From Candidatus Latescibacterota bacterium (lineage in GTDB: Bacteria; Latescibacterota; UBA2968), in the NCBI GenBank assembly GCA_038279365.1, contig JAYODI010000113.1, positions 1 through 14,327 on the forward strand: a stretch of 14,327 bases of DNA. The letters run 5' to 3'. The notes below the pieces were generated by a model. That model searched no databases and was not told the origin of the DNA. It worked only from the letters and a program-made list of their open reading frames with translations. A program made the translations under genes and the position numbers. Of the stretch, positions 1,793-14,200 are shown piece by piece. Position 1 is the first letter of the stretch. Every line of letters starts with the position of its first letter.

Positions 1793-1821
1793 TTGACTTT
1801 TCAATTTGATGCCTGTAACTT
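1793..1821 (+). promoter_or_regulatory. Putative sigma70 promoter of the leu leader/leuA transcript
   Basis: TTGACT (1793-1798), 17-bp spacer, TAACTT (1816-1821), about 40 nt upstream of the first leader ATG. Confidence 0.6.
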
Positions 1822-1859
1822 TTGGCACAGTCAACCATACATTTATCTTTGAGAAAAAA

Positions 1860-1949
1860 ATGACCATCCCTTACACACACCTTCATCTTCTCCTTCTAAG
1901 CCTACTTGGTTTGTTCCAAGAAACGGTAGTTGGAGAGGCGTGTGTATAG
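1860..1949 (+). CDS. Leucine-rich attenuator leader peptide 1, 29 aa: MTIPYTHLHLLLLSLLGLFQETVVGEACV
   Basis: Hand translation: 8 Leu within codons 8-18, two of them CTA. Followed by an intrinsic terminator and located upstream of leuA. Below the ORF-track length cutoff. Confidence 0.85.
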   Translation: MTIPYTHLHLLLLSLLGLFQETVVGEACV

Positions 1950-1969
1950 ATTTTGGTAGATTAAAACAC

Positions 1970-2007
1970 AAACCCTCGCTGCCGTTGGCAGCGGGGGTTT
2001 TTTGTTT
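1970..2007 (+). terminator. Attenuator terminator 1
   Basis: Stem AAACCCTCGCTGCC, loop GTT, GGCAGCGGGGGTTT, followed by a T run. Confidence 0.9.
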
Positions 2008-2057
2008 AAAACATACAAAACAAAAAGCAATTTCAATTAAAACAGGTTTTAAATATC

Positions 2058-2144
2058 ATGAAAAATATGCTTCTATACATCCTTCTACTTACAATCGACC
2101 TCCTACTTACAGGAGGTTCGGCAGGGGGCTTGGTGCGGCTTTAA
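2058..2144 (+). CDS. Leucine-rich attenuator leader peptide 2, 28 aa: MKNMLLYILLLTIDLLLTGGSAGGLVRL
   Basis: Hand translation: 10 Leu, in LL/LLL/LLL runs that each contain a CTA codon. Followed by a second terminator just before the leuA RBS. Confidence 0.85.
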   Translation: MKNMLLYILLLTIDLLLTGGSAGGLVRL

Positions 2145-2173
2145 CAACATGCACCATGAGCATATTTTATCCC

Positions 2174-2216
2174 ACCCGCTGCCGTATTCGTCGTCAGCGG
2201 GTTTTTATTTTTTATT
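2174..2216 (+). terminator. Attenuator terminator 2
   Basis: Stem ACCCGCTG(C)CG, loop TATTCGT, CG(T)CAGCGGGT, then TTTTATTTTTTATT. The left arm CCCGCTGCCG can alternatively pair with CGGCAGGGGG (2119-2128), a candidate antiterminator. Confidence 0.88.
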
Positions 2217-2229
2217 AAGGAGTTTAATC

Positions 2230-3771
2230 ATGTCTAACAAAATCGTTGTATTTGACACCACTTTAAGAGATGGCGAACAAGCTGCAGGCACACGTTTGGG
2301 CGCCCGTGAAAAACTCACCATTGCCCGACAGTTGGAACGTTTGCAAGTGGATGTTATTGAAGCTGGGTTTCCGGCCTCATCCCCTGAAGATGCCGCAGCA
2401 GTGGCCTTAATTGCTCAAGAAGTGCGCAACCCCATTGTTTGTGGTCTGACGCGTGCCGTTAAAGCCGATATTGATGCATGCGCCAAAGCATTGGAAAAAG
2501 CCTCTCGCCCACGTATTCACACAGGTATTGGTGTGTCGGATATTCATGTGATGGGCAAATTTGGAGACATCAAATATGGGAAAACCATTGCGGAAAAAAA
2601 GACACGCATCTTGGACATGGCCGTCAATGCCGTGCGTCATGCTCGCACCTATGTGGATGATGTTGAATTTTATGCAGAAGATGCAGGGCGTGCCGATCGG
2701 GCGTATTTGTTTGCCATGATTCAAGCCGTCATTGAAGCGGGTGCTACCGTTGTCAACATTCCCGACACCACAGGGTACACCTTGCCCGATCAATATGGTG
2801 CGCTCATTCGCAGTCTGACGGAACACGTGCCCAACATCAAACAAGCGATTATTAGTGTGCATTGTCACAACGACTTGGGTTTGGCTGTTGCCAATACCTT
2901 GTCGGGTTTGCAAAATGGTGCAGGGCAGTTTGAAGGCACGCTCAACGGCATTGGAGAACGCGCAGGCAATGCCGCATTAGAAGAAGTGGTGATGGCACTG
3001 CGCACCCGCCAAGATGCCATTGGATTGGATACAAACATCAACACAAAAGAATTTTATCGCACAAGCCGAATGGTATCAGACGCAATGGGCATGCCCGTTT
3101 CGGCAAACAAAGCCATTATTGGCGAAAACGCCTTTGCACACAGCTCGGGTATTCATGTAGATGGTGTATTAAAAGAACGCACCACTTATGAAATTATGTC
3201 ACCTGAAGATGTGGGCATGTCACACTCACAAGTGGTGCTCACCGCACGCACAGGTCGCCATGGTGTCAAACATCGCTTGGAAGAATTGGGCCACATTGTT
3301 TCAACGGAAGAACTCGAACAAATTTATCAACGGTTCTTGGTGGTTGCCGACAAAAAACGCGAAGTCTTCGACGACGACCTCATTGCCATCTTGCACGATG
3401 AAATTCGCGATCAGCCCGAAATATATCGATTAGAAGAATTTCAAATTACAACCGGCACCAGATCGATGCCCACGGCATCGGTCAAATTGTGCATCAACGA
3501 CCAAGCACATGAAGGCGCGGCCACAGGTGCTGGCCCTGTGGATGCTCTTTTTATAGCCATTGCATCGGTGGCCGACATCGCACCCAAATTGGTCGATTAT
3601 GACATTCGCTCTGTCACCAGTGGCACAGAGGCTATGGGTGAAGTTTCGGTGAAATTATCTGCAAACAATCGCCAGGTGGTTGGGCGTGGTGCGGCTACAG
3701 ATATTATAGAAGCCAGTGCCAAAGCATATTTGGATGGTTTGAACAAATTGGCACACACCATAAAAATATAA
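2230..3771 (+). CDS. leuA: 2-isopropylmalate synthase, 513 aa
   Basis: [57 protein letters not shown] and a C-terminal regulatory domain (GPVDA). Start placed at ATG 2230 behind AAGGAG (2217-2222), not at 2149. Confidence 0.96.
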
Positions 3772-3940
3772 AATTACAACCTGTAACCACTGGCAAAGTG
3801 TCTGTCATTCACCAGCACAAAGTTGCCACCACGTGATGGTGTTATCGCAAAATCAAACCGTCTCAAAGACCATTTATGTATCCAAACGATTGGTTAATTT
3901 TGTAACGACATCATCAATGATTGCAATCGCAAAGGATAAA

Positions 3941-3978
3941 ATAAAGCGTTGAATAGCATATTCAGCGCTTTTATTTTT
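3941..3978 (+). terminator. Intrinsic terminator downstream of leuA
   Basis: AAAGCGTTGAATA-GCA-TATTCAGCGCTTT then TATTTTT. One G-U pair favours the + strand. Confidence 0.8.
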
Positions 3979-3981
3979 AAA

Positions 3982-4220: not shown

Positions 4221-5453
4221 ATGGCATTTGCCTTTAATACCAATTCGCAACCCCAAGACAAGTTCAAATTTGTGGTTGGTTTGCGATTTGAACTGTTTTA
4301 CGCACTCCAAACACTCACATATCACAGCACACCAACTTGTGACGATGGCAAACGCATTGGTATGCATTTGGGTTGGAAACAAAAAACGCTTCAAAAATTG
4401 CCACAGGCCTTTCATGACAATTTTAAAACCTTGGGTGGTTCACCGCATTTTTGGCCAGCAATTGCTGATGCATTGGAGTACTGCCCCATTGAAGCTTCTT
4501 TTGAAGACATCATCACCTATCTCAAAAATCTCGATCCATCCGATTTTCGAGAATCTATTTTGGTGGGCACCTTGCACGAGCAAGACATTGTTAACGATTT
4601 GATCTCGGGTGCCAAAACCTTAGCAGATGTTTCTGAAAACGCACCCGAGCAAGAACAAAAGTGGCTTGAATTTTTAGGATTAAGACCCTATCAGGCAGAT
4701 GCCGACATTGTCAAAGCTATGAACAGTCTTATCCATACGCCCGAGGCATTCAAAAACACACTCGTAGAAACGCTTCGCCTCATTTGGGATATTGAACTGG
4801 AATCTATTTGGTTGTCTGAATATCCACAACTGGTCAAATCGATAGAAGAAAAGAAACGGCTCTTTGAAACCTATACATTGCCAGAGTTTTTAGAACGTGC
4901 CTTAGACAATGACAAAACTGTTGCCATGAAAATTGATGAGGAAAATCAAACCCTTGTCTGTTGCAAAGGCCAGTTCCGAATTCCTTTTCATAAGCTGGGC
5001 AGTTTCTCGCTCATGCCGTCTATTTTTAACAGCATGAGATTCTGGACATTTTACGAATATGGTGATTATACCAACATCTTTCTCCCCTACTTTGTCTATG
5101 ACTTAACCCTTGATGGTGATGAAGAAACATCACCTGAAAACGTTGTGTCGATCTCATCCAACGGCAAACGGGTGCCCGAAATGAATCCGTCACTCATATT
5201 TAAAGCCTTAGGTGACAACACCCGATATGCCATTATTGCACACATTGCTCAAACACCGTGTACTGCAGCAGAACTTTCAAAAATATTAAAAGTATCCAAA
5301 CCCACGATTTCACATCACGTTCAATTATTGCGCGAGGCTGGGTTGTTACTTGAAGAACCTGCAGCACGATCTATTCAATTATCGCTCAAGCGCGAAGTAA
5401 TTGAACATTTGTCTCAAGCAACAGTTGGAAATCTTTTTAGCAGTGTAAATTAG
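4221..5453 (+). CDS. ArsR/SmtB-family transcriptional regulator with C-terminal winged HTH and long N-terminal domain, 410 aa
   Basis: C-terminal FKALGDNTRYAII...TAAELSKILKVSKPTISHHVQLLREAGLL is a typical ArsR HTH. RBS GGAG at 4210-4213. Confidence 0.88.
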   Translation: MAFAFNTNSQPQDKFKFVVGLRFELFYALQTLTYHSTPTCDDGKRIGMHLGWKQKTLQKLPQAFHDNFKTLGGSPHFWPAIADALEYCPIEASFEDIITYLKNLDPSDFRESILVGTLHEQDIVNDLISGAKTLADVSENAPEQEQKWLEFLGLRPYQADADIVKAMNSLIHTPEAFKNTLVETLRLIWDIELESIWLSEYPQLVKSIEEKKRLFETYTLPEFLERALDNDKTVAMKIDEENQTLVCCKGQFRIPFHKLGSFSLMPSIFNSMRFWTFYEYGDYTNIFLPYFVYDLTLDGDEETSPENVVSISSNGKRVPEMNPSLIFKALGDNTRYAIIAHIAQTPCTAAELSKILKVSKPTISHHVQLLREAGLLLEEPAARSIQLSLKREVIEHLSQATVGNLFSSVN

Positions 5454-6618: not shown

Positions 6619-7890
6619 TTATGCACGAAAATATGAGCTGGGATTGCCGTGTGGTGGAATGCGGCTAAAGGCATCGTCATTGGCAAGCGTCATGGCAATG
6701 CCCAAAGGTGCGGCATCGGTATCGTCACAGCGCATATTAAATGTGGTGCCTCCCCACCGTGTGCCAACCACCAACACATCAAAACGCGTAAACCGTTCTT
6801 GAATGCGATCAAATGCAAGGTGACCTAAAATGTGGGGTTCAAAACCACGCTCTTCCACCAAGCAACACATCTGCCCGCGTCGATACACCGAACGCGAAGG
6901 CGGTTGAATACACCACGATCCACTTTCTTGAAGCTTACCCCCACCGTGTAGCGTCATATAAACATGATCCATATCCACATCGGTTACCAACAATTCCAGT
7001 GCCACATCTTGTGGCACATCTTTGGGCCAAGGGGGTGTTTCGCCACGCACAATGTCTAACATGTGATAACGAACCAGACGCCGATGAATGGCCTCGGGCA
7101 GTGAAAAACGATCGCCCTTTTGAACGCCCTCAGGTACAATAGATAACATCTCTTCACGTGTTAACCATACAAAGTCTTGATTGTGTGCCAAGCGTTGATA
7201 ATCGCCATCGGGGCGTGTATCAATTTTGCGGGGCAAATCGGTACAGCCCAAGTGCAACACCAGCCCATCTTCGGGATAATGCCAAACATATTTGGTATCG
7301 CGGGAAAAGTCGCCAATTTGAGACACATCTTTTTGCGTGGTGCGGTTGTCCCAATTGCTCAGTGCTTGATGGAGCATTGCAAGCAACTCATCGGGATCGG
7401 CTGTGTGACGCGAGCCCAACAACTCTCCCTCAATGGTTGCTACAAATTGCCCTTGATGACATTCACCGTGATCGGTTTGCGCCATTTTTGCAAGGGCTTC
7501 ATCAAATGAAAGCTTGAACCGGCCTTGTAATGCAATGAGGCGAAAACAGCGGCCTTCTTCGTCATCTTGTCGTTGTAAACTGTTAATATCAATCGCAGCT
7601 GTTACAAACCGTTCGTTTAACAGTTGGATAATGCGTGGGTCAGAGTATGTGCGCTCACGGCGCACAACACCATTGTTTCAGACACAGCCAACGGGGTGGC
7701 CATTCATTGCCCATAAAAAAAGCGGTTTGTTTTCTTGGGCAGATCGTTGACGGGCAGGCCAAAACTCGGTTTCCCACTGAATTTCTGTCCAACGCTCTGT
7801 TTGGGGTTTGGGCAAACATTGGGCAAATACTGCATCAAACGTATCTAATGTTACCTCTGGTGGTGGGTTTTGTATGATATCGTTGTACAT
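6619..7890 (-). CDS. Predicted selenoprotein, thioredoxin-like/SelN-like, 423 aa with Sec at codon 71 (TGA 7680-7678); joins ORF-track entries 7678..7929 and 6619..7665
   Basis: The two ORFs are in the same frame, separated only by TGA plus AAC AAT GGT GTT. Joined reading: ENKPLFLWAMNGHPVGCV-U-NNGVVRRERTYSDPRIIQLLNERFV. RBS AAGGAG precedes ATG 7890; SECIS-like hairpin lies directly downstream of the TGA. Confidence 0.85.
7644..7671 (-). promoter_or_regulatory. Bacterial SECIS-like hairpin
   Basis: mRNA GGUG-U(bulge)-UGUGCGC-CGUGA-GCGCACA-UACU: perfect 7-bp upper stem and a 5-nt loop with GU at loop positions 2-3. There are 18 nt between the UGA and the loop. Confidence 0.75.
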
Positions 7891-11107: not shown

Positions 11108-12613
11108 ATGTCTCAGCCCAATATCTTGCTCATCATTTCTGACCAAATGGTAGCTCACCTCACGGGTGCCTACGGTCACACTGTTGTGCAAACGCCTGGC
11201 CTCAACAGCTTGGTCGAACAGGGCGTGCGCTTTGACGCGGCCTATTCCCCCTTTCCGCTGTGTTCACCTGCCCGTGCCTGTCTTATGACGGGTTCCTTTG
11301 CAGCCAACATCGGTGCTTATGACAACGCCTCCGAACTCCGCTCCGACATTCCCACTTTTACACATTACCTCACCAACGCCGGTTATGATACCGTACTTTC
11401 TGGCAAAATGCACTTTGTTGGTGCCGATCAACTCCACGGCTTCAACAGACGCCTCACCACCGACATTTATCCCGCCGATTTTCAATGGGTCAAACCCGAG
11501 TGGATCAAATTAAAAGAAGCCAAAGGCGATGGCTACGAAGACATTATGAGCACCCGTGCCACCTACCATTCTAAAAACTATGTGGGCCACACTCTCAAGA
11601 TTGGCACTTGGAATGCGCCTTTAAGTTATGATGAAGAAACCCATTTTCGGGCCTTGGAATATCTGCACGCAATGGGGCAACAAAAAGACCACAAACCTTT
11701 TCTTTTGTGTGCGTCTTACCACCACCCTCACGAACCTTTTTGGTCGCCTCAAAAATATTGGGATCAATATGAAGGTGCCGAAATAGATATTCCAGACCTG
11801 CCCGACAACTTAGATGATACCTATTCTATGATGGACAAATGGCTCAATGCCTATCACGGCACCCGACGCAACGACTTGCGAGATCGCGACGCGCTTTATA
11901 AACTGCGTCGTTCCTATTACGGCCTTGTTTCTTATATGGACAACAAGGTATCTGAACTTTTGGATAGCCTCAAAGAAAATGGGCTTCACGACAATACCAT
12001 TGTCATTTTTATATCTGATCACGGCGATATGCTTTGCGAAAAAGAAATGGTTCAAAAACGCACTTTCTATGAATGGTCTGCCCGTGTGCCTTTCATTGTT
12101 CGTTTTCCCGACGGCTACCAAGCCGGCAAAACCATTGACCAACCTGTTTCCCTCATCGACATTTTGCCCACCTTGTGTGACCTTGCCGACGTAGACGATC
12201 GCCTCCCCTGCGACGGTCAAAGCATTATGCCTCTTATTGATGGTACTGAAACCGAAAATCGCACGGTCTTCTCAGAGGCCTACGAAGCTGTTGCCGCCCC
12301 CTGTATAATGGCCAGAAAGGGCCATTATAAATACGTCCACATTCACGAACACCCGGGCCAACTCTTTGATCTGTCCACCGATCCTGGCGAATGGCATAAT
12401 CTCTTGGGGCACCCAGAAACAGCCGACATTGAAACCGATTTGCGCGCTCAAATTTTCGAAAACTTTGACCCCGCTGAAATTGCCGAAGACAACCTCGACA
12501 GCCTCTACCGCCGTCAAATGATCAACCAAGCCCAGCAAACCAATAACGTCTCGTGGGCGCACACGCCCACCTTCAACCCCAACAAAAATTCGCTCAGCCA
12601 ATACCTACCCTAA
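11108..12613 (+). CDS. betC: Formylglycine-dependent sulfatase, choline-sulfatase (BetC)-like, 501 aa
   Basis: PNILLIISDQ and the CSPAR signature. YDNA...LSGKMHFVGADQLHGF..RLTTDIYPADF closely matches my recollection of BetC. SDHGDM present. The substrate is inferred. Confidence 0.8.
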   Translation: MSQPNILLIISDQMVAHLTGAYGHTVVQTPGLNSLVEQGVRFDAAYSPFPLCSPARACLMTGSFAANIGAYDNASELRSDIPTFTHYLTNAGYDTVLSGKMHFVGADQLHGFNRRLTTDIYPADFQWVKPEWIKLKEAKGDGYEDIMSTRATYHSKNYVGHTLKIGTWNAPLSYDEETHFRALEYLHAMGQQKDHKPFLLCASYHHPHEPFWSPQKYWDQYEGAEIDIPDLPDNLDDTYSMMDKWLNAYHGTRRNDLRDRDALYKLRRSYYGLVSYMDNKVSELLDSLKENGLHDNTIVIFISDHGDMLCEKEMVQKRTFYEWSARVPFIVRFPDGYQAGKTIDQPVSLIDILPTLCDLADVDDRLPCDGQSIMPLIDGTETENRTVFSEAYEAVAAPCIMARKGHYKYVHIHEHPGQLFDLSTDPGEWHNLLGHPETADIETDLRAQIFENFDPAEIAEDNLDSLYRRQMINQAQQTNNVSWAHTPTFNPNKNSLSQYLP

Positions 12614-12648
12614 TCCTATTGCAATCTTCTTCGCCAAGGGCCACCCTC

Positions 12649-12815
12649 GCACAGCGCATGATCCCACTGGCATAGTTGTCACAAAACCACCCCATCTCGT
12701 AGGCCACTGAACCCATTGAACCCACAAACGAGATTTGCGCTGTGCAGCCCCCCGGCACTTGAGGGGCGACTTTTTGCCTACTTTTTTGTTGCTTAAAAAG
12801 TAGGCCGCCGGAGGC
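12649..12815. repeat. Structured intergenic element, probably a dispersed repeat (MITE/REP-like)
   Basis: Stems GCACAGCGCA/TGCGCTGTGC (12649-12658/12736-12745), ATCTCGT/ACGAGAT (12694-12700/12728-12734) and GCCTACTTTTT/AAAAAGTAGGC (12776-12786/12795-12805). Confidence 0.55.
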
Positions 12816-12892
12816 CACAAAACAAAACGTAAAACCGGTTTTCATTCACCCAACAAACCACAATACCCATCCGATTAAGAAAGCGACCCCAA

Positions 12893-14200
12893 ATGCCCAA
12901 CCAACCCAACATCCTCTTCCTCTTCCCCGACCAACTCAGATTCGATTGGATCTCCGGCAACCCTCAAATCCCGGTTCGCACGCCCCACCTCGACCGCCTT
13001 CGTGCCCAAGGCACCACCTTTGCCAAAGCCGTTACCCCCTCTCCTTTGTGCGCCCCTTGCCGAGCCGCCCTTGCCCTGGGCGTTGAATATCACCACAGCC
13101 CTGTTCAAGGCAACGGCGAAAATGTGCCTCTAAACGCACCGACCTTCTACAAGCATTTACGCGATTCTGGGTACCACGTGATGGGGTGTGGCAAATTTGA
13201 TTTGAACAAGGGCGACTGCATTTCTCGCAAACCCGCCTGGGGGCTTGATGGCAAAAAGAATTTACACGCGTGGGGTTTTTCTGATGGCATCAACAATGAA
13301 GGCAAAATGGACGGTGCAAACAGTGGCAAAGAAAAACCGCAAGGCCCCTACCTCCAGTTTTTGGAAGAACGGGGGCTCCGTCAGGTTCATATCGACGACT
13401 TTGCGGCGCGCAACAAAACATCGTCATTTGCTACGCCACTTCCCGACGACGCCTACTGCGACAACTGGATTGGGCAAAACGGATTGGATCTGATTGATTC
13501 CGTTCCCCCAAACAAGCCGTGGTTTCTCCAGGTGAATTACAATGGTCCTCATAACCCGTGGGATATTACCGAATCTATGAAAGCGCTCTACAAAGACGCA
13601 CCATTTCCTGCCCCCAATGCAACCGATGACATCGACCCCGAGGTGCACCAAGACGTGCGCCGAAACTACGCCGCAATGGTCGAAAACATTGATCGTTGGA
13701 CGGGGAAGTTTTTAGACAAGCTCACCGAACGTGGCGAACTTGAAAACACCCTCATTGTCTTTTCTTCGGATCACGGTGAAATGCTTGGCGATCAAAATTT
13801 GTGGGGCAAAACCCAACCCTATCACCCTTCCGTCAGCGTGCCCTTGGTTATTGCGGGGCCACAGGTAAAACACGCGACAACAAATGTGCCCACCACCATT
13901 CTCGACCTACCCGCCACCTTTTTGGATTACGCCAATGTGCCCATTCCTCCAGAAATGGACAGCCGTTCTTTGCGCTCTTTCTTGGAAGGTCAAACGACTG
14001 CCCATCGCAAAGTTGTTACGTCCAGCCTTCGCAACTGGCAAATGGTTTATGACGGGCGTTTTAAATATGTTGAAGGCTTTATCGACACCCCTCAGTTTTT
14101 CGATCTTGAAAGTGACTCGCTCGAAAACAACAACCTCATTACCCACCCCAATGCGGTCGAACAAATTGCACGATTAAAAGCACAACTGCCAAATCCATAA
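12893..14200 (+). CDS. Formylglycine-dependent sulfatase family protein, 435 aa, substrate unknown
   Basis: PNILFLFPDQ, RTPHLDRL, CAPCR signature (CxPxR), GPHNP, ENTLIVFSSDHGEMLG. No signal peptide. Confidence 0.9.
   Translation: MPNQPNILFLFPDQLRFDWISGNPQIPVRTPHLDRLRAQGTTFAKAVTPSPLCAPCRAALALGVEYHHSPVQGNGENVPLNAPTFYKHLRDSGYHVMGCGKFDLNKGDCISRKPAWGLDGKKNLHAWGFSDGINNEGKMDGANSGKEKPQGPYLQFLEERGLRQVHIDDFAARNKTSSFATPLPDDAYCDNWIGQNGLDLIDSVPPNKPWFLQVNYNGPHNPWDITESMKALYKDAPFPAPNATDDIDPEVHQDVRRNYAAMVENIDRWTGKFLDKLTERGELENTLIVFSSDHGEMLGDQNLWGKTQPYHPSVSVPLVIAGPQVKHATTNVPTTILDLPATFLDYANVPIPPEMDSRSLRSFLEGQTTAHRKVVTSSLRNWQMVYDGRFKYVEGFIDTPQFFDLESDSLENNNLITHPNAVEQIARLKAQLPNP

Follow-up and report, generated by a model that had tools for sequence, protein, structure and literature searches.

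Why should a stand-alone leuA gene be preceded by two short leucine-rich open reading frames (ORFs) in tandem, each followed by its own terminator, and do the two act in series? In textbook descriptions of leader-peptide attenuation, each operon has a single sensor. The locus lies on a contig (JAYODI010000113.1, assembly GCA_038279365.1) of an uncultured lineage labelled Candidatus Latescibacterota; "the window" below means the whole stretch analysed, 14,327 nucleotides. We consider it probable that a single promoter drives two classical leucine attenuators in series before this gene, a reading in which we infer the translation of the leaders, the ribosome stalling, the single transcript and the quantitative effect.

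Two leucine-rich leaders upstream of a second leuA

The target gene and the two leaders are as follows.

2230..3771, + strand: leuA, 2-isopropylmalate synthase paralog of 513 aa, with AAGGAG at 2217-2222; monocistronic
1860..1949, + strand: leader ORF 1, ATG at 1860 and TAG at 1947-1949, encoding MTIPYTHLHLLLLSLLGLFQETVVGEACV (29 aa, 8 Leu)
2059..2145, + strand: leader ORF 2, ATG at 2059 and TAA at 2143-2145, encoding MKNMLLYILLLTIDLLLTGGSAGGLVRL (28 aa, 10 Leu)

The leuA product matched the Pfam families HMGL-like, HCS_D2 and LeuA_dimer, and scored 718 bits with NCBIfam NF002086 (cut-off 532) and 671 bits with TIGR00973 (cut-off 599). Judged from these matches, it is a bona fide isopropylmalate synthase with a predicted leucine-binding regulatory domain. 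A hairpin with a T-run lies downstream of the gene near 3940-3980. This leuA is the second paralog of the genome, the other being located in an ilvN-leuA-leuCD-cimA cluster. A 61-codon hydrophobic ORF was also found upstream of the ilvN-leuA cluster, but this region was not regarded as an attenuator, because it is without a terminator.

The regulatory codons of the leaders are those of leucine, the end product of the leuA pathway, with 8 in the first and 10 in the second, including LLLL and three Leu triplets. Leader 1 uses CTT four times, CTA twice, and CTC and TTG once each, and leader 2 uses CTT five times, CTA three times, and CTC and TTG once each. Of the Leu codons in the genome's long ORFs, 2.7% are CTA and 45.8% are TTG, while CTA, CTT and TTG account for 5, 9 and 2 of the 18 Leu codons in the two leaders of this genome (G000). 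The leader Leu codons are mostly the rare ones of the genome (CTA, CTT), which is a strong bias, and the leaders of relatives show the same codon pattern. There is one tRNA-Leu gene per anticodon. With regard to translation, which is predicted for both leaders, a GAG/AGGA element 8-9 nt upstream of the ATG gives leader 1 ribosome-binding potential, and the Shine-Dalgarno-like element of leader 2 consists of GG only, at -13/-12, 11 nt from the ATG.

A Leu-run ORF next to a terminator is unlikely to have arisen by chance, since only 9 of the 1436 short ORFs that end just upstream of a terminator-like hairpin in the whole genome contain at least 5 Leu per 8-residue window. Leader 2 is among these nine; leader 1 is outside them because an upstream in-frame ATG pushed its ORF past the length cut-off of the scan.

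Alternative structures in both units

The following RNA elements were assigned in the two units.

1870..1948, + strand: unit 1 protector hairpin (regions 1:2), in which ACACAC and Leu codons pair with GGAGAGGCGUGUGU; from the minimum-energy fold
1922..1986, + strand: unit 1 antiterminator (regions 2:3), GGUAG..GAG..GUGUG with CACA..CUC.CUGCC, the 5' arm of the terminator
1970..2007, + strand: terminator 1, 14-pair G+C-rich stem at 1970-2000, 3-nt loop, T6-G-T3 tail from 1998
2098..2119, + strand: unit 2 hairpin, CCUCCU/AGGAGG, formed over Leu triplet 3 and enclosed by a helix of Leu codons with GGGGG (2081-2086 paired to 2123-2128)
2120..2185, + strand: unit 2 antiterminator, CGGCAGGGGG with CCCGCUGCCG of the 5' arm of the terminator; from nascent-RNA folds, in five of five sequences
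2174..2216, + strand: terminator 2, 8-pair stem ACCCGCUG/CAGCGGGU at 2174-2202, 13-nt loop with 2 inner pairs, T5-A-T6 tail

The original prediction, made from the window alone, had proposed two Leu-rich leader ORFs (8 Leu in 29 aa and 10 in 28 aa), each with its own terminator, and these elements were all found where it had placed them. The alternative pairings that it named in both units were recovered in minimum-energy and nascent-RNA folds: the minimum-energy structure contains CUUCUCC:GGAGAGG in unit 1 (z -5.7) and the ACCUCCU/AGGAGGU hairpin in unit 2 (z -3.8).

To model a stalled ribosome, the nascent RNA was folded after it was cut before the 3' arm of the terminator and the ribosome footprint was masked. 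When the ribosome was placed on the Leu run, 9-12 of the 11-14 bases of the terminator 5' arm were sequestered in 10 of 10 unit-by-sequence cases, and masking everything up to the stop codon freed the arm. In all five sequences, the unit 1 antiterminator formed at whichever position from Leu8 to Leu16 the ribosome was placed, and its gain in arm-pairing energy was reached by none of 300 dinucleotide shuffles in each of G000, G002 and G001. Full-length equilibrium folds with the same kind of masks always retained the terminators; they were dropped as the wrong model, because attenuation is decided before the 3' arm exists.

The two units differ in where region 2 ends relative to the stop codon. 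In unit 1 it reaches the stop codon, 20 nt upstream of the terminator stem, and in the folding model this unit clearly has the stop-codon placement that would let an unstalled ribosome block the antiterminator. In unit 2 it lies inside the ORF, 14-23 nt before the stop, and would thus be only partly covered by a ribosome at the stop; a ribosome-sized mask placed there leaves 8 of 11 arm bases pairable.

The two terminators are also unequal. Terminator 1 was listed by a consensus scan, in which 0.4 terminator-like sites were expected and 2 were found; the calculated energy of its hairpin is -25 kcal/mol in G000 and -25 to -30 kcal/mol across the sequences. Terminator 2 was seen by folding only and was absent from the list of the consensus scan, because its loop is too large. 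Its calculated energy is -15.8 kcal/mol in G000 and -15.6 to -19 kcal/mol over G000, the metagenome contig L154 and G001, and it is weak in the metagenome contig L133 (-11.9 kcal/mol) and in G002 (-7.4 kcal/mol). In terms of predicted stability, terminator 2 falls far short of terminator 1 (-7.4 to -19 vs -25 to -30 kcal/mol), a point that had escaped the original prediction, as had the second leuA paralog and the likeness of the two units.

Conservation of the double unit

The search for the double unit covered 41 related genomes (with the protein as query), a species collection and metagenome contigs, and five distinct sequences were found to carry both units. They come from three species of the genus (G000, G001 and G002) and from the two metagenome contigs L133 and L154. 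A sixth sequence, contig L113, breaks off within unit 1 but still has terminator 1 and unit 2. Both ORFs, the Leu runs, the terminators and the antiterminator pairings are all kept in the five. A search of the relatives had been suggested together with the original prediction, and the double unit indeed proved to be kept in G001, G002, L133 and L154.

Its distribution is narrow within the regions surveyed, several of which cover less than 300 nt upstream of leuA. Among 28 loci of related genomes (L003-L030), 27 are without an upstream Leu-run ORF and one (L024) has an unrelated 46-aa ORF. In the 79 upstream regions of L031-L112 (three loci without the N-terminus were dropped), the double unit occurs in the genus's own records only, and in the 77 regions of L113-L192 (three loci dropped) it occurs only in L133, L134 and L154, plus the cut L113. 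Similarly, a BLAST search of the leader against the 41 related genomes gave a match along its length in G001 and G002 only, the other matches being 27-33 nt long.

Between G000 and G002, identity is 81% in the promoter, 79% and 86% from the Leu run to the stop of the two leaders, and 89% and 78% in the two terminators, against 52% in the spacer between the units, 52-57% in leader codons 1-9 and 58% at third positions of leuA. By this comparison conservation is a mosaic, in which the segments between the predicted functional elements drift at an approximately neutral rate.

Base pairing was evaluated on 4-6 closely related sequences with structures derived from one of these. In unit 1, pairing across sequences is 95% for protector helix 3 and 90% for protector helix 4, each of which has one compensatory pair, and 97% for terminator 1, which has two, including G-C to A-U in G001. 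The G-to-A change of G001 in the 5' arm of this terminator leaves pairing intact in either state, as A-U in the terminator and U-A in the antiterminator. In the terminated state, 87.7% of the cells of unit 1 are paired (sliding the partners lowers this to 40-50%) and 84.5% of those of unit 2, and the pairs in which both sides have changed number 7 and 4, respectively. The antiterminator is 87.5% paired in unit 1 (34-47% with partners slid) and 81.9% paired in unit 2, whose largely invariant core helix reaches 93%; both antiterminators drop to 34-51% when slid. Most antiterminator pairs are invariant and are therefore uninformative either way on covariation. The features that can be tested in sequence, including the compensatory changes, are consistent with the two ribosome-dependent leucine attenuators in series that had been proposed.

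One promoter or two

The serial arrangement would require that both units are carried on one transcript. The elements concerned are as follows.

1793..1829, + strand: promoter, -35 TTGACT at 1793-1798, 17-nt spacer, -10 TAACTT at 1816-1821, putative start at about A1829
2008..2058, + strand: inter-unit spacer; interspecies identity is 50-60%, and G002 and L133 carry a 20-nt insertion here

The -35 element and the block CTGTA..TTTTGGC are identical in five of five sequences, and the promoter region is 73-81% identical between species, compared with 52-60% for its flanks. As far as sequence comparison goes, there is one conserved promoter, 5' of unit 1. Contigs from RNA libraries, which cannot show RNA ends or levels, give weak hints only: one (X19) covers 1829-1983, and its start 8 nt after the -10 element hints at transcription starting there, and another spans terminator 2 into leuA, a similarly weak hint of transcription across it. 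A further contig (X20) covers 1695-1857, that is, the end of thiI and the promoter, and could be due to read-through or to DNA in the library.

Alternatively, there may be two separate transcription units: unit 1 would be an orphan attenuator or small RNA gene, and a second promoter, located in the spacer or close to it, would drive unit 2 and leuA, leaving leuA under one attenuator. Little read-through is expected at terminator 1, whose hairpin of -25 to -30 kcal/mol and T6 tail make it very strong. Moreover, the RNA contigs of run X10 cover 2158-3100 with none over 1829-2157, and among the contigs placed on the locus, which cannot show ends or levels, none joins units 1 and 2. No sigma-70-like site was listed in the spacer in four of four sequences scanned, by a weak scan that also misses the conserved upstream promoter, because the -10 of the latter matches 3 of 6 positions; a scan of such low power leaves room for a weak spacer promoter, and a TTTAAT-like motif is indeed present just upstream of the leader 2 ATG in four of five sequences. 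On the other hand, this motif is 3-4 nt from the ATG, so that a start from it would fall past the start codon. The spacer is the least conserved segment, with its 20-nt indel, and no conserved -35/-10 pair was found in it by sequence comparison. In addition, the conserved antiterminator of unit 1 would serve solely to let the polymerase continue. Thus, we regard separate transcription as unlikely, and it is the strongest of the alternatives.

Is unit 2 a decaying copy?

If one promoter serves both units, it may still be that only one of them senses leucine and the other is a decaying tandem duplicate. Unit 2 would be the likeliest decaying copy, because its terminator is weak, falling to -7.4 kcal/mol in G002 and -11.9 kcal/mol in L133. 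The similarity of the two units to each other (z 3.9-9.8 relative to shuffled sequences, in a whole-unit test that overstates it, since the hairpin and T-run they share are lost on shuffling) makes duplication likely. Within the unit 2 antiterminator, L133 has a mismatch caused by a G-to-T change inside CGGCAG, and the pairing was reached by 36 of 300 dinucleotide shuffles in G000, which is not significant, compared with none of 300 in G002 and G001.

However, unit 2 is well kept. Its ORF (28-30 codons), the Leu triplets, the hairpin and the terminator stem are present in six of six sequences; pairing amounts to 96.7% in the hairpin, 91.7% in the outer helix and 95% in the terminator stem, and the hairpin shows two compensatory pairs, among them the change from CCUCC/GGAGG to CCUUC/GAAGG in G001. 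These elements were kept while the adjoining spacer and loops drifted to 44-64% identity. Moreover, the very change that weakens terminator 2 in G002 turns the antiterminator into a perfect 9-pair helix, which looks more like tuning than like decay, and both units retain rare Leu codons. A decaying unit 2 seems rather improbable to us, somewhat more so than a second promoter.

A reading in which the short ORFs are genes for small hydrophobic proteins that have some separate function, ended by ordinary terminators and without amino-acid sensing, is quite improbable. Both peptides are hydrophobic, and amino acids are conserved in parts, such as LLSLLGL and IDLLLTGGSAGG, the latter in leader 2, where the stretch IDLLLTGGSAGG.VRL is almost invariant. 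But the conservation is at the nucleotide level, including third positions, and falls exactly at the predicted RNA pairs. Leader 1, at a constant 29 codons in five of five sequences, has variable codons 2-9, while its Leu run through the stop is 78-97% identical; such freely varying N-terminal codons, as well as the use of the rarest Leu codons, contrary to the expectation for an expressed protein, argue against a protein function, which would leave the adjacency to leuA and the antiterminators overlapping the terminators without a role. Finally, an assembly artefact by collapse or duplication of a repeat, a concern already raised with the original prediction, is negligible: Logan contigs of the independent DNA run X3 break at 1976-2019, at the palindromic terminator 1, but the two units differ greatly in sequence and the same double order stands in the independent assemblies G002, G001, L133 and L154, five in all when L113, which bridges terminator 1 to leuA, is included.

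Proposed mechanism

Returning to the two attenuators in series, one promoter (about 1793-1821) would start a leader RNA of about 400 nt that carries both units. In each unit, a ribosome would translate the short ORF with its mostly rare Leu codons (CUA, CUU). A shortage of charged tRNA-Leu is expected to stall the ribosome in the Leu run and thereby to melt the protector helix; the freed region 2 (GGUAG... in unit 1 and CGGCAGGGGG in unit 2) would then pair with the terminator 5' arm and RNA polymerase would continue. When leucine is plentiful, the ribosome would cross region 2 to the stop, the terminator would form and transcription would end at about 2005 or 2210. In this scheme leuA would be expressed only after both checkpoints are passed. 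Since both would be required, read-through would be the product of two probabilities, which should lower the basal expression and make the response to the charging of Leu-tRNA steeper.

Comparison with known leaders

The closest analogue is the enterobacterial leuL attenuator, whose Leu-codon run contains rare codons. Common features are the short Leu-run leader ORF, the alternatives of protector, antiterminator and terminator, and the intrinsic terminator before leuA; leuL senses charged tRNA-Leu via ribosome stalling, and the same may hold for the leuA units. In contrast to the single leader and single terminator of leuL, two complete units in series are found here, and the target is a monocistronic extra leuA instead of the leuABCD operon, in an uncultured lineage, Candidatus Latescibacterota, instead of enterobacteria. 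In a scan of 1600-2400 against Rfam (E <=10), nothing scored above any gathering score, and the best matches (L10_leader at 28.3 bits, PyrR and His_leader), which cover only the terminator, were rejected. For Leu_leader (RF00512), unit 1 reached 16.5 bits against the gathering score of 50 and unit 2 gave no match; with a score below this threshold, the leader is an analogue of RF00512 and not a member.

Tandem riboswitches have two complete units of sensor and terminator for the same signal in one 5' leader, which appear to have arisen by duplication and to sharpen the response, and tandem arrangement reshapes the dose-response curves of riboswitches and T-boxes. Two leader peptides are present in the ermA leader. 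The leader peptides ermBL and ermBL2 of ermB are likewise described in tandem (PMC8274638). These erm leaders share with the leuA leader the tandem ORFs and ribosome stalling as the signal, but theirs is macrolide-induced translational attenuation, with no amino-acid sensing and no terminator pair. Double T-boxes, as described in PMC9413887, have two units of sensor and terminator in one leader and are thought to be duplicated and to sharpen the response. In both tandem riboswitches and double T-boxes the RNA itself senses the ligand or the uncharged tRNA, whereas here the predicted sensor is the translating ribosome.

The mgtCBR leader of Salmonella comes close in another respect, having the tandem attenuators mgtM and mgtP, in which short translated ORFs control alternative stem-loops and whether transcription proceeds into the coding region; its authors remark that biosynthetic genes are normally under a single attenuator (PMC3641672). 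It resembles the leuA leader in having two translated ORFs before one coding region, but its signals differ, being ATP and proline, and according to that account it is without the two intrinsic terminators of tandem riboswitches, whereas the leuA leader has two, for what would be the same signal twice. The original prediction knew of no described example of its proposal, and in agreement with this, our literature search found no tandem ribosome-mediated attenuators, or leader-peptide attenuators, that sense one and the same amino acid.

Origin and implications

Leader-peptide attenuation appears, from sequence features, to be used elsewhere in this organism, as leader ORFs rich in Val, Ile and Thr, followed by terminators, precede two ilvB-like genes (C73:25147 and C9:32773 in G000). 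Their architecture is the same as that of the leuA units, but they are single units with Val, Ile and Thr regulatory codons, compared with two units and Leu for leuA. The C73 terminator and unit 2 both carry CCCGCTGCCG...CAGCGGG, the sole two such sites in the genome, and the C73 leader shows collinear similarity to both units (z 4.5-7.9 in a shuffle test). With the ORF parts alone, the similarity between units 1 and 2 was reached by none of 300 shuffles in G002 and G001 and by 140 of 300 in G000 (not significant). Profiles of the units searched against the genome with nhmmer gave weak cross-matches only (unit 1 to the C73 terminator, E 0.17; unit 2 to unit 1, E 5.1), and the claim of homology therefore rests on the shuffle test. 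These comparisons suggest that units 1 and 2 are probably duplicates of one attenuator cassette, related to the ilvB leader of the same genome.

On this basis, the leuA leader may be the first natural case of serial ribosome-mediated checkpoints for the same signal, with a duplicated cassette selected for near-zero basal expression of an auxiliary, probably horizontally acquired leuA and for its ultrasensitive, switch-like induction when leucine runs out. We offer this broader interpretation tentatively, as a possibility that falls a little short of our being inclined to accept it. A conserved natural case would be a good test bed for whether serial stalling sensors multiply repression and sharpen the response. 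It also raises the questions of how the second leader becomes translated once the strong upstream terminator is passed, and how cassettes duplicate and retarget, here from an ilvB-type to a leucine leader. Moreover, it would extend classical attenuation to an uncultured lineage, and would illustrate how a second, possibly acquired, isopropylmalate synthase may stay silent until a real shortage of leucine.

Attenuator RNAs may have a second role, as the trp attenuator RNA of Sinorhizobium is reported to act in trans (PMC6614838). By analogy, an abundant RNA of about 175 nt released at terminator 1 might act in trans too.

Results

A double leader upstream of an extra leuA gene

The original prediction placed two complete leucine attenuators in tandem upstream of leuA, and sequence reading and folding agree on two Leu-rich leader ORFs, each followed by a terminator, at the following positions.

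Features of the leuA locus
stop at 1701: thiI-like gene (Pfam ThiI, THUMP)
530 nt between the thiI-like gene and the leuA ORF: intergenic region
1860-1949: leader ORF 1, 29 codons, 8 Leu
1970-2000: terminator 1, 14-pair hairpin, then T-run
2059-2145: leader ORF 2, 28 codons, 10 Leu
2174-2202: terminator 2 hairpin, with T-runs to 2216
2230-3771: leuA, 2-isopropylmalate synthase, 513 aa (Pfam HMGL-like, HCS_D2, LeuA_dimer)
near 3940-3980: hairpin with T-run downstream of leuA

The leader regions of both units (each an ORF with its terminator) are more stable than dinucleotide shuffles (z -5.7 for unit 1 and -3.8 for unit 2). The genome of the window (G000; 6.03 Mb, 199 contigs) was scanned for short ORFs ending just before a terminator-like hairpin; 9 of the 1436 candidates had at least 5 Leu in an 8-residue window. 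Chance does not account for two adjoining Leu units before leuA. The double unit is also present in two genomes of the same genus, G002 (leuA 89% identical) and G001 (90% over the part present), and in the metagenome contigs L133 (88%) and L154 (96%). Another contig, L113 (95%), is truncated within unit 1 but runs from terminator 1 through the spacer and unit 2 into leuA. Over their last 500 nt, L134, L055 and L111 do not differ from one another, nor do L002 and L031, so the distinct sequences comprise five full ones and a partial one. Misassembly, which had been a concern of the original prediction, is ruled out by this recurrence in independent assemblies.

The leuA ORF scores above the NCBIfam equivalog cut-offs (NF002086, 718 bits vs 532; TIGR00973, 671 vs 599). 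By downstream sequence and Pfam, leuBCD are absent after it and the next gene is unrelated. A second isopropylmalate synthase of G000, which also passes the equivalog cut-offs and is 55% identical to the window copy, lies on another contig (C37:40064-41554; 10047-11600 of the fetched locus L112) in a cluster of ilvN-leuA-leuC-leuD-citramalate synthase; the window leuA is an extra copy in this genome. Upstream of this cluster, we found neither a Leu leader nor a terminator. Within 600 nt before it, there is a 61-codon hydrophobic ORF (L112 9237-9407; …LALILPMLASLIAAILIIAQ) with a TTGACA-like promoter upstream and without a terminator downstream. Among 41 related genomes searched, the window-type leuA is confined to the genus (G000, G001, G002), the leader DNA matches G001 and G002 only, and the remaining genomes have only the cluster-type gene (54-58% identity). 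Outside the genus, the protein is most closely related to those of Bryobacterales and other Acidobacteriota (63-70%), which suggests that the window leuA may have been horizontally acquired.

Alternative structures in both units

In the minimum-energy fold of unit 1, a protector is formed by ACACAC and the Leu-codon stretch paired with GGAGAGGCGUGUGU, and the terminator is also formed. Since attenuation is decided before the terminator 3' arm exists, we folded nascent RNA cut before this arm with the ribosome footprint masked. With the A site on Leu8-Leu16 of unit 1, a long imperfect helix formed (GGUAG..GAG..GUGUG : CACA..CUC.CUGCC). Of the 14 bases in the 5' arm, this helix occupied 12 in G000 and L154 and 9 in G002, L133 and G001, and the arm was unpaired once everything up to the stop codon was masked. 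In unit 2, CGGCAGGGGG within the leader ORF paired with CCCGCUGCCG in all five sequences, and this antiterminator sequestered 9-12 of the 11-13 arm bases in each. In the terminated state of unit 2, the G-run of region 2 (the segment that pairs with the terminator 5' arm upon ribosome stalling) pairs with the Leu codons CCUUCU and encloses a CCUCCU/AGGAGG hairpin over the third Leu triplet. Thus, the alternative pairings claimed for both units were recovered, protectors and antiterminators alike, the latter in 5/5 sequences. In the masked fold of unit 2, a ribosome paused at the stop codon left part of region 2 exposed, so that termination there would have to depend on passage of the ribosome through region 2 and re-pairing of the G-run with the Leu codons behind it.

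Base pairs were counted in alignments of closely related sequences (A1, five rows, four distinct; A2, six rows), using structures derived from G000, in which most antiterminator pairs are invariant. In unit 1, the terminated state was paired in 87.7% of cells (40-50% when slid; 7 pairs altered on both sides), terminator 1 in 97% (2 compensatory pairs) and the antiterminator in 87.5% (34-47% when slid). In unit 2, the terminated state reached 84.5% (40-50% when slid), the hairpin 96.7% (2 compensatory pairs), terminator 2 95% and the antiterminator 81.9% overall and 93% in its core helix. In terminator 1 of G001, a G-to-A change in the 5' arm has a matching C-to-U change on the 3' side; the 5'-arm change also turns an antiterminator U-G into U-A. 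When the segment from stall site to terminator was shuffled, the energy gain of arm pairing beat 300/300 shuffles in five of six tests; in G000 unit 2, it was reached by 36/300. Terminator 2 is far weaker than terminator 1 (hairpin energies, -7.4 to -19 vs -25 to -30 kcal/mol) and was not seen by the consensus terminator scan.

Leu codon usage

Leu codons in long ORFs of the G000 genome (share of all Leu codons)
TTG: 45.8%
CTC: 16.3%
TTA: 13.6%
CTT: 12.7%
CTG: 8.9%
CTA: 2.7%

The 18 Leu codons of the two G000 leaders are CTT (9), CTA (5), CTC (2) and TTG (2), and CTA makes up four of the six in G002 unit 1. Five Leu anticodons are represented in the genome, each by a single tRNA-Leu gene. Such a preference for the rarest codons suits a starvation sensor, whereas an expressed small protein would be expected to show the opposite. 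Part of this bias is forced by pairing of CUUCU with G-rich partners.

Promoters and RNA contigs

The observed double unit is real, and its interpretation as tandem attenuators is the best supported one: it is fairly probable that two leucine-sensing attenuators act in series from one promoter. A second promoter, which would make unit 1 independent of leuA, is unlikely. The promoter upstream of unit 1 is conserved in all five sequences (TTGACT, 17-nt spacer, TA(A/G)(C/T)TT), and no conserved promoter-like pair was found in the aligned inter-unit spacers. A consensus scan also listed no spacer promoter in four sequences, which is weak evidence because the scan misses the conserved upstream promoter, too, whose -10 fits the consensus at three of six positions.

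The RNA evidence consists of assembled contigs only. One contig from a DNase-treated metatranscriptome (X19) starts at 1829, 8 nt past the -10, and extends into terminator 1, and another from a different run (X10) starts at 2158 and crosses terminator 2 into leuA. Terminator 1 is a near-perfect palindrome, reported on both strands by the scan in relatives, and Logan contigs of both RNA and DNA runs end at it. A further RNA-library contig (X20, 1695-1857) runs from the last thiI codons through the promoter of the leuA leader, reflecting either thiI read-through or DNA in the library.

Related attenuators and origin of the units

Val/Ile/Thr-rich leader ORFs, each with a terminator, precede two ilvB-like genes of G000 (C73:25147 and C9:32773), and leader-peptide attenuation thus seems to be used elsewhere in this genome. 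At C73:25147-25320 (+), a strong terminator (CCCCGCTGCCG...CAGCGGGG + T7) lies between the leader ORF MKQTYQTFTTTVTLVTTILVGVVGIVRAIRKSEAAL and an acetolactate-synthase-like gene directly downstream; this leader is probably an attenuator for branched-chain amino acids and a relative of the leuA units. At C9:32773-33017 (+), the leader ORF MTSTQITAIVVTHLVERVGVVDVSVPRWRY and its terminator precede a promoter that fits TTGACA-17-TATAAT perfectly, with the other acetolactate-synthase-like gene after it, an arrangement which the second-promoter explanation proposes for the leuA locus.

The core CCGCTG...CAGCGGG + T-run occurs at only two sites in the genome, the unit 2 terminator and the C73 leader terminator, and unit 1 of the relatives has the same core (CCCGCTGCC...GGCAGCGGGGG). 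When the two units were aligned collinearly, the score exceeded dinucleotide shuffles (z 3.9 in G000, 9.8 in G002, 8.5 in G001); for the ORF parts alone, it did so in G002 and G001 (z 5.3 and 6.4) but not in G000 (z -0.0). Both units also resemble the ilvB leader (z 4.5-7.9). In profile searches with the units, cross-matches were weak. On this moderate evidence, the units are probably duplicates of one attenuator cassette.

Conservation across the leader is a mosaic. Between G000 and G002, identity is 81% in the promoter, 79% and 86% from the Leu run to the stop in leaders 1 and 2, and 89% and 78% in terminators 1 and 2. The first leader codons (52-57%), the segments from stop codon to terminator (46-60%) and the spacer between the units (52%, with an additional 20-nt indel) are no different from leuA third codon positions (58%). 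Selection therefore acts on the attenuator-required parts of both units and not on these intervening segments. That one unit is a silent duplicate is unlikely, somewhat more so than a second promoter.

Distribution and comparison with known systems

For proteobacterial attenuators, the key comparative study is that of Vitreschak et al. (2004). In the full-text literature searched, which covers few subscription journals, we came across no tandem arrangement of leader-peptide attenuators that sense one and the same amino acid. According to Lee and Groisman (PMC3641672), biosynthetic genes are normally under a single attenuator, and Salmonella mgtCBR has tandem attenuators sensing different signals; on the other hand, the leuA locus is predicted to sense the same signal twice. 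Other papers describe a tandem second terminator in the leader of rimP, which does not work through a leader peptide (Naville and Gautheret, PMC2965389), single leuA leader elements in Actinobacteria (Seliverstov et al., PMC1262725), two leader peptides in erm genes (PMC8274638), and double T-boxes, thought to derive from duplication and to sharpen the response (PMC9413887). The leuA locus would represent the classical mechanism in a tandem same-signal form known to date from riboswitches and T-boxes, predicted here in an uncultured lineage and for an auxiliary leuA.

As for relatives, where the original prediction proposed to look for the double unit, it is present in the genus and in L133 and L154, and no double Leu-run leader was found outside the genus among the upstream regions of other leuA genes fetched. 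A single Leu-run ORF precedes leuA in a few loci of other phyla (L079, L179, L149, L153, L070, L071, L073). In L079 and L179 from Victivallales, its terminator has a CCCACUGCC-type arm like the genus units. Three Planctomycetota loci (L070, L071, L073) share a leader ending ...LALLLILRP with no clear T-run; a hairpin lies over the leader's stop codon, and the sequence downstream contains a conserved block.

Elsewhere in the window, 4221-5453 (+) encodes a 410-aa protein with a C-terminal ArsR/SmtB-type HTH (residues 326-398) as its sole Pfam feature, its ~320 N-terminal residues having no Pfam family, and the 348-aa ORF at 6619-7665 (-) matches no Pfam family at all. At 11108-14200, two neighbouring sulfatase genes (Sulfatase + SGSH_C) follow genes for an epimerase and a polysaccharide deacetylase, which fits a polysaccharide-degrading lifestyle.
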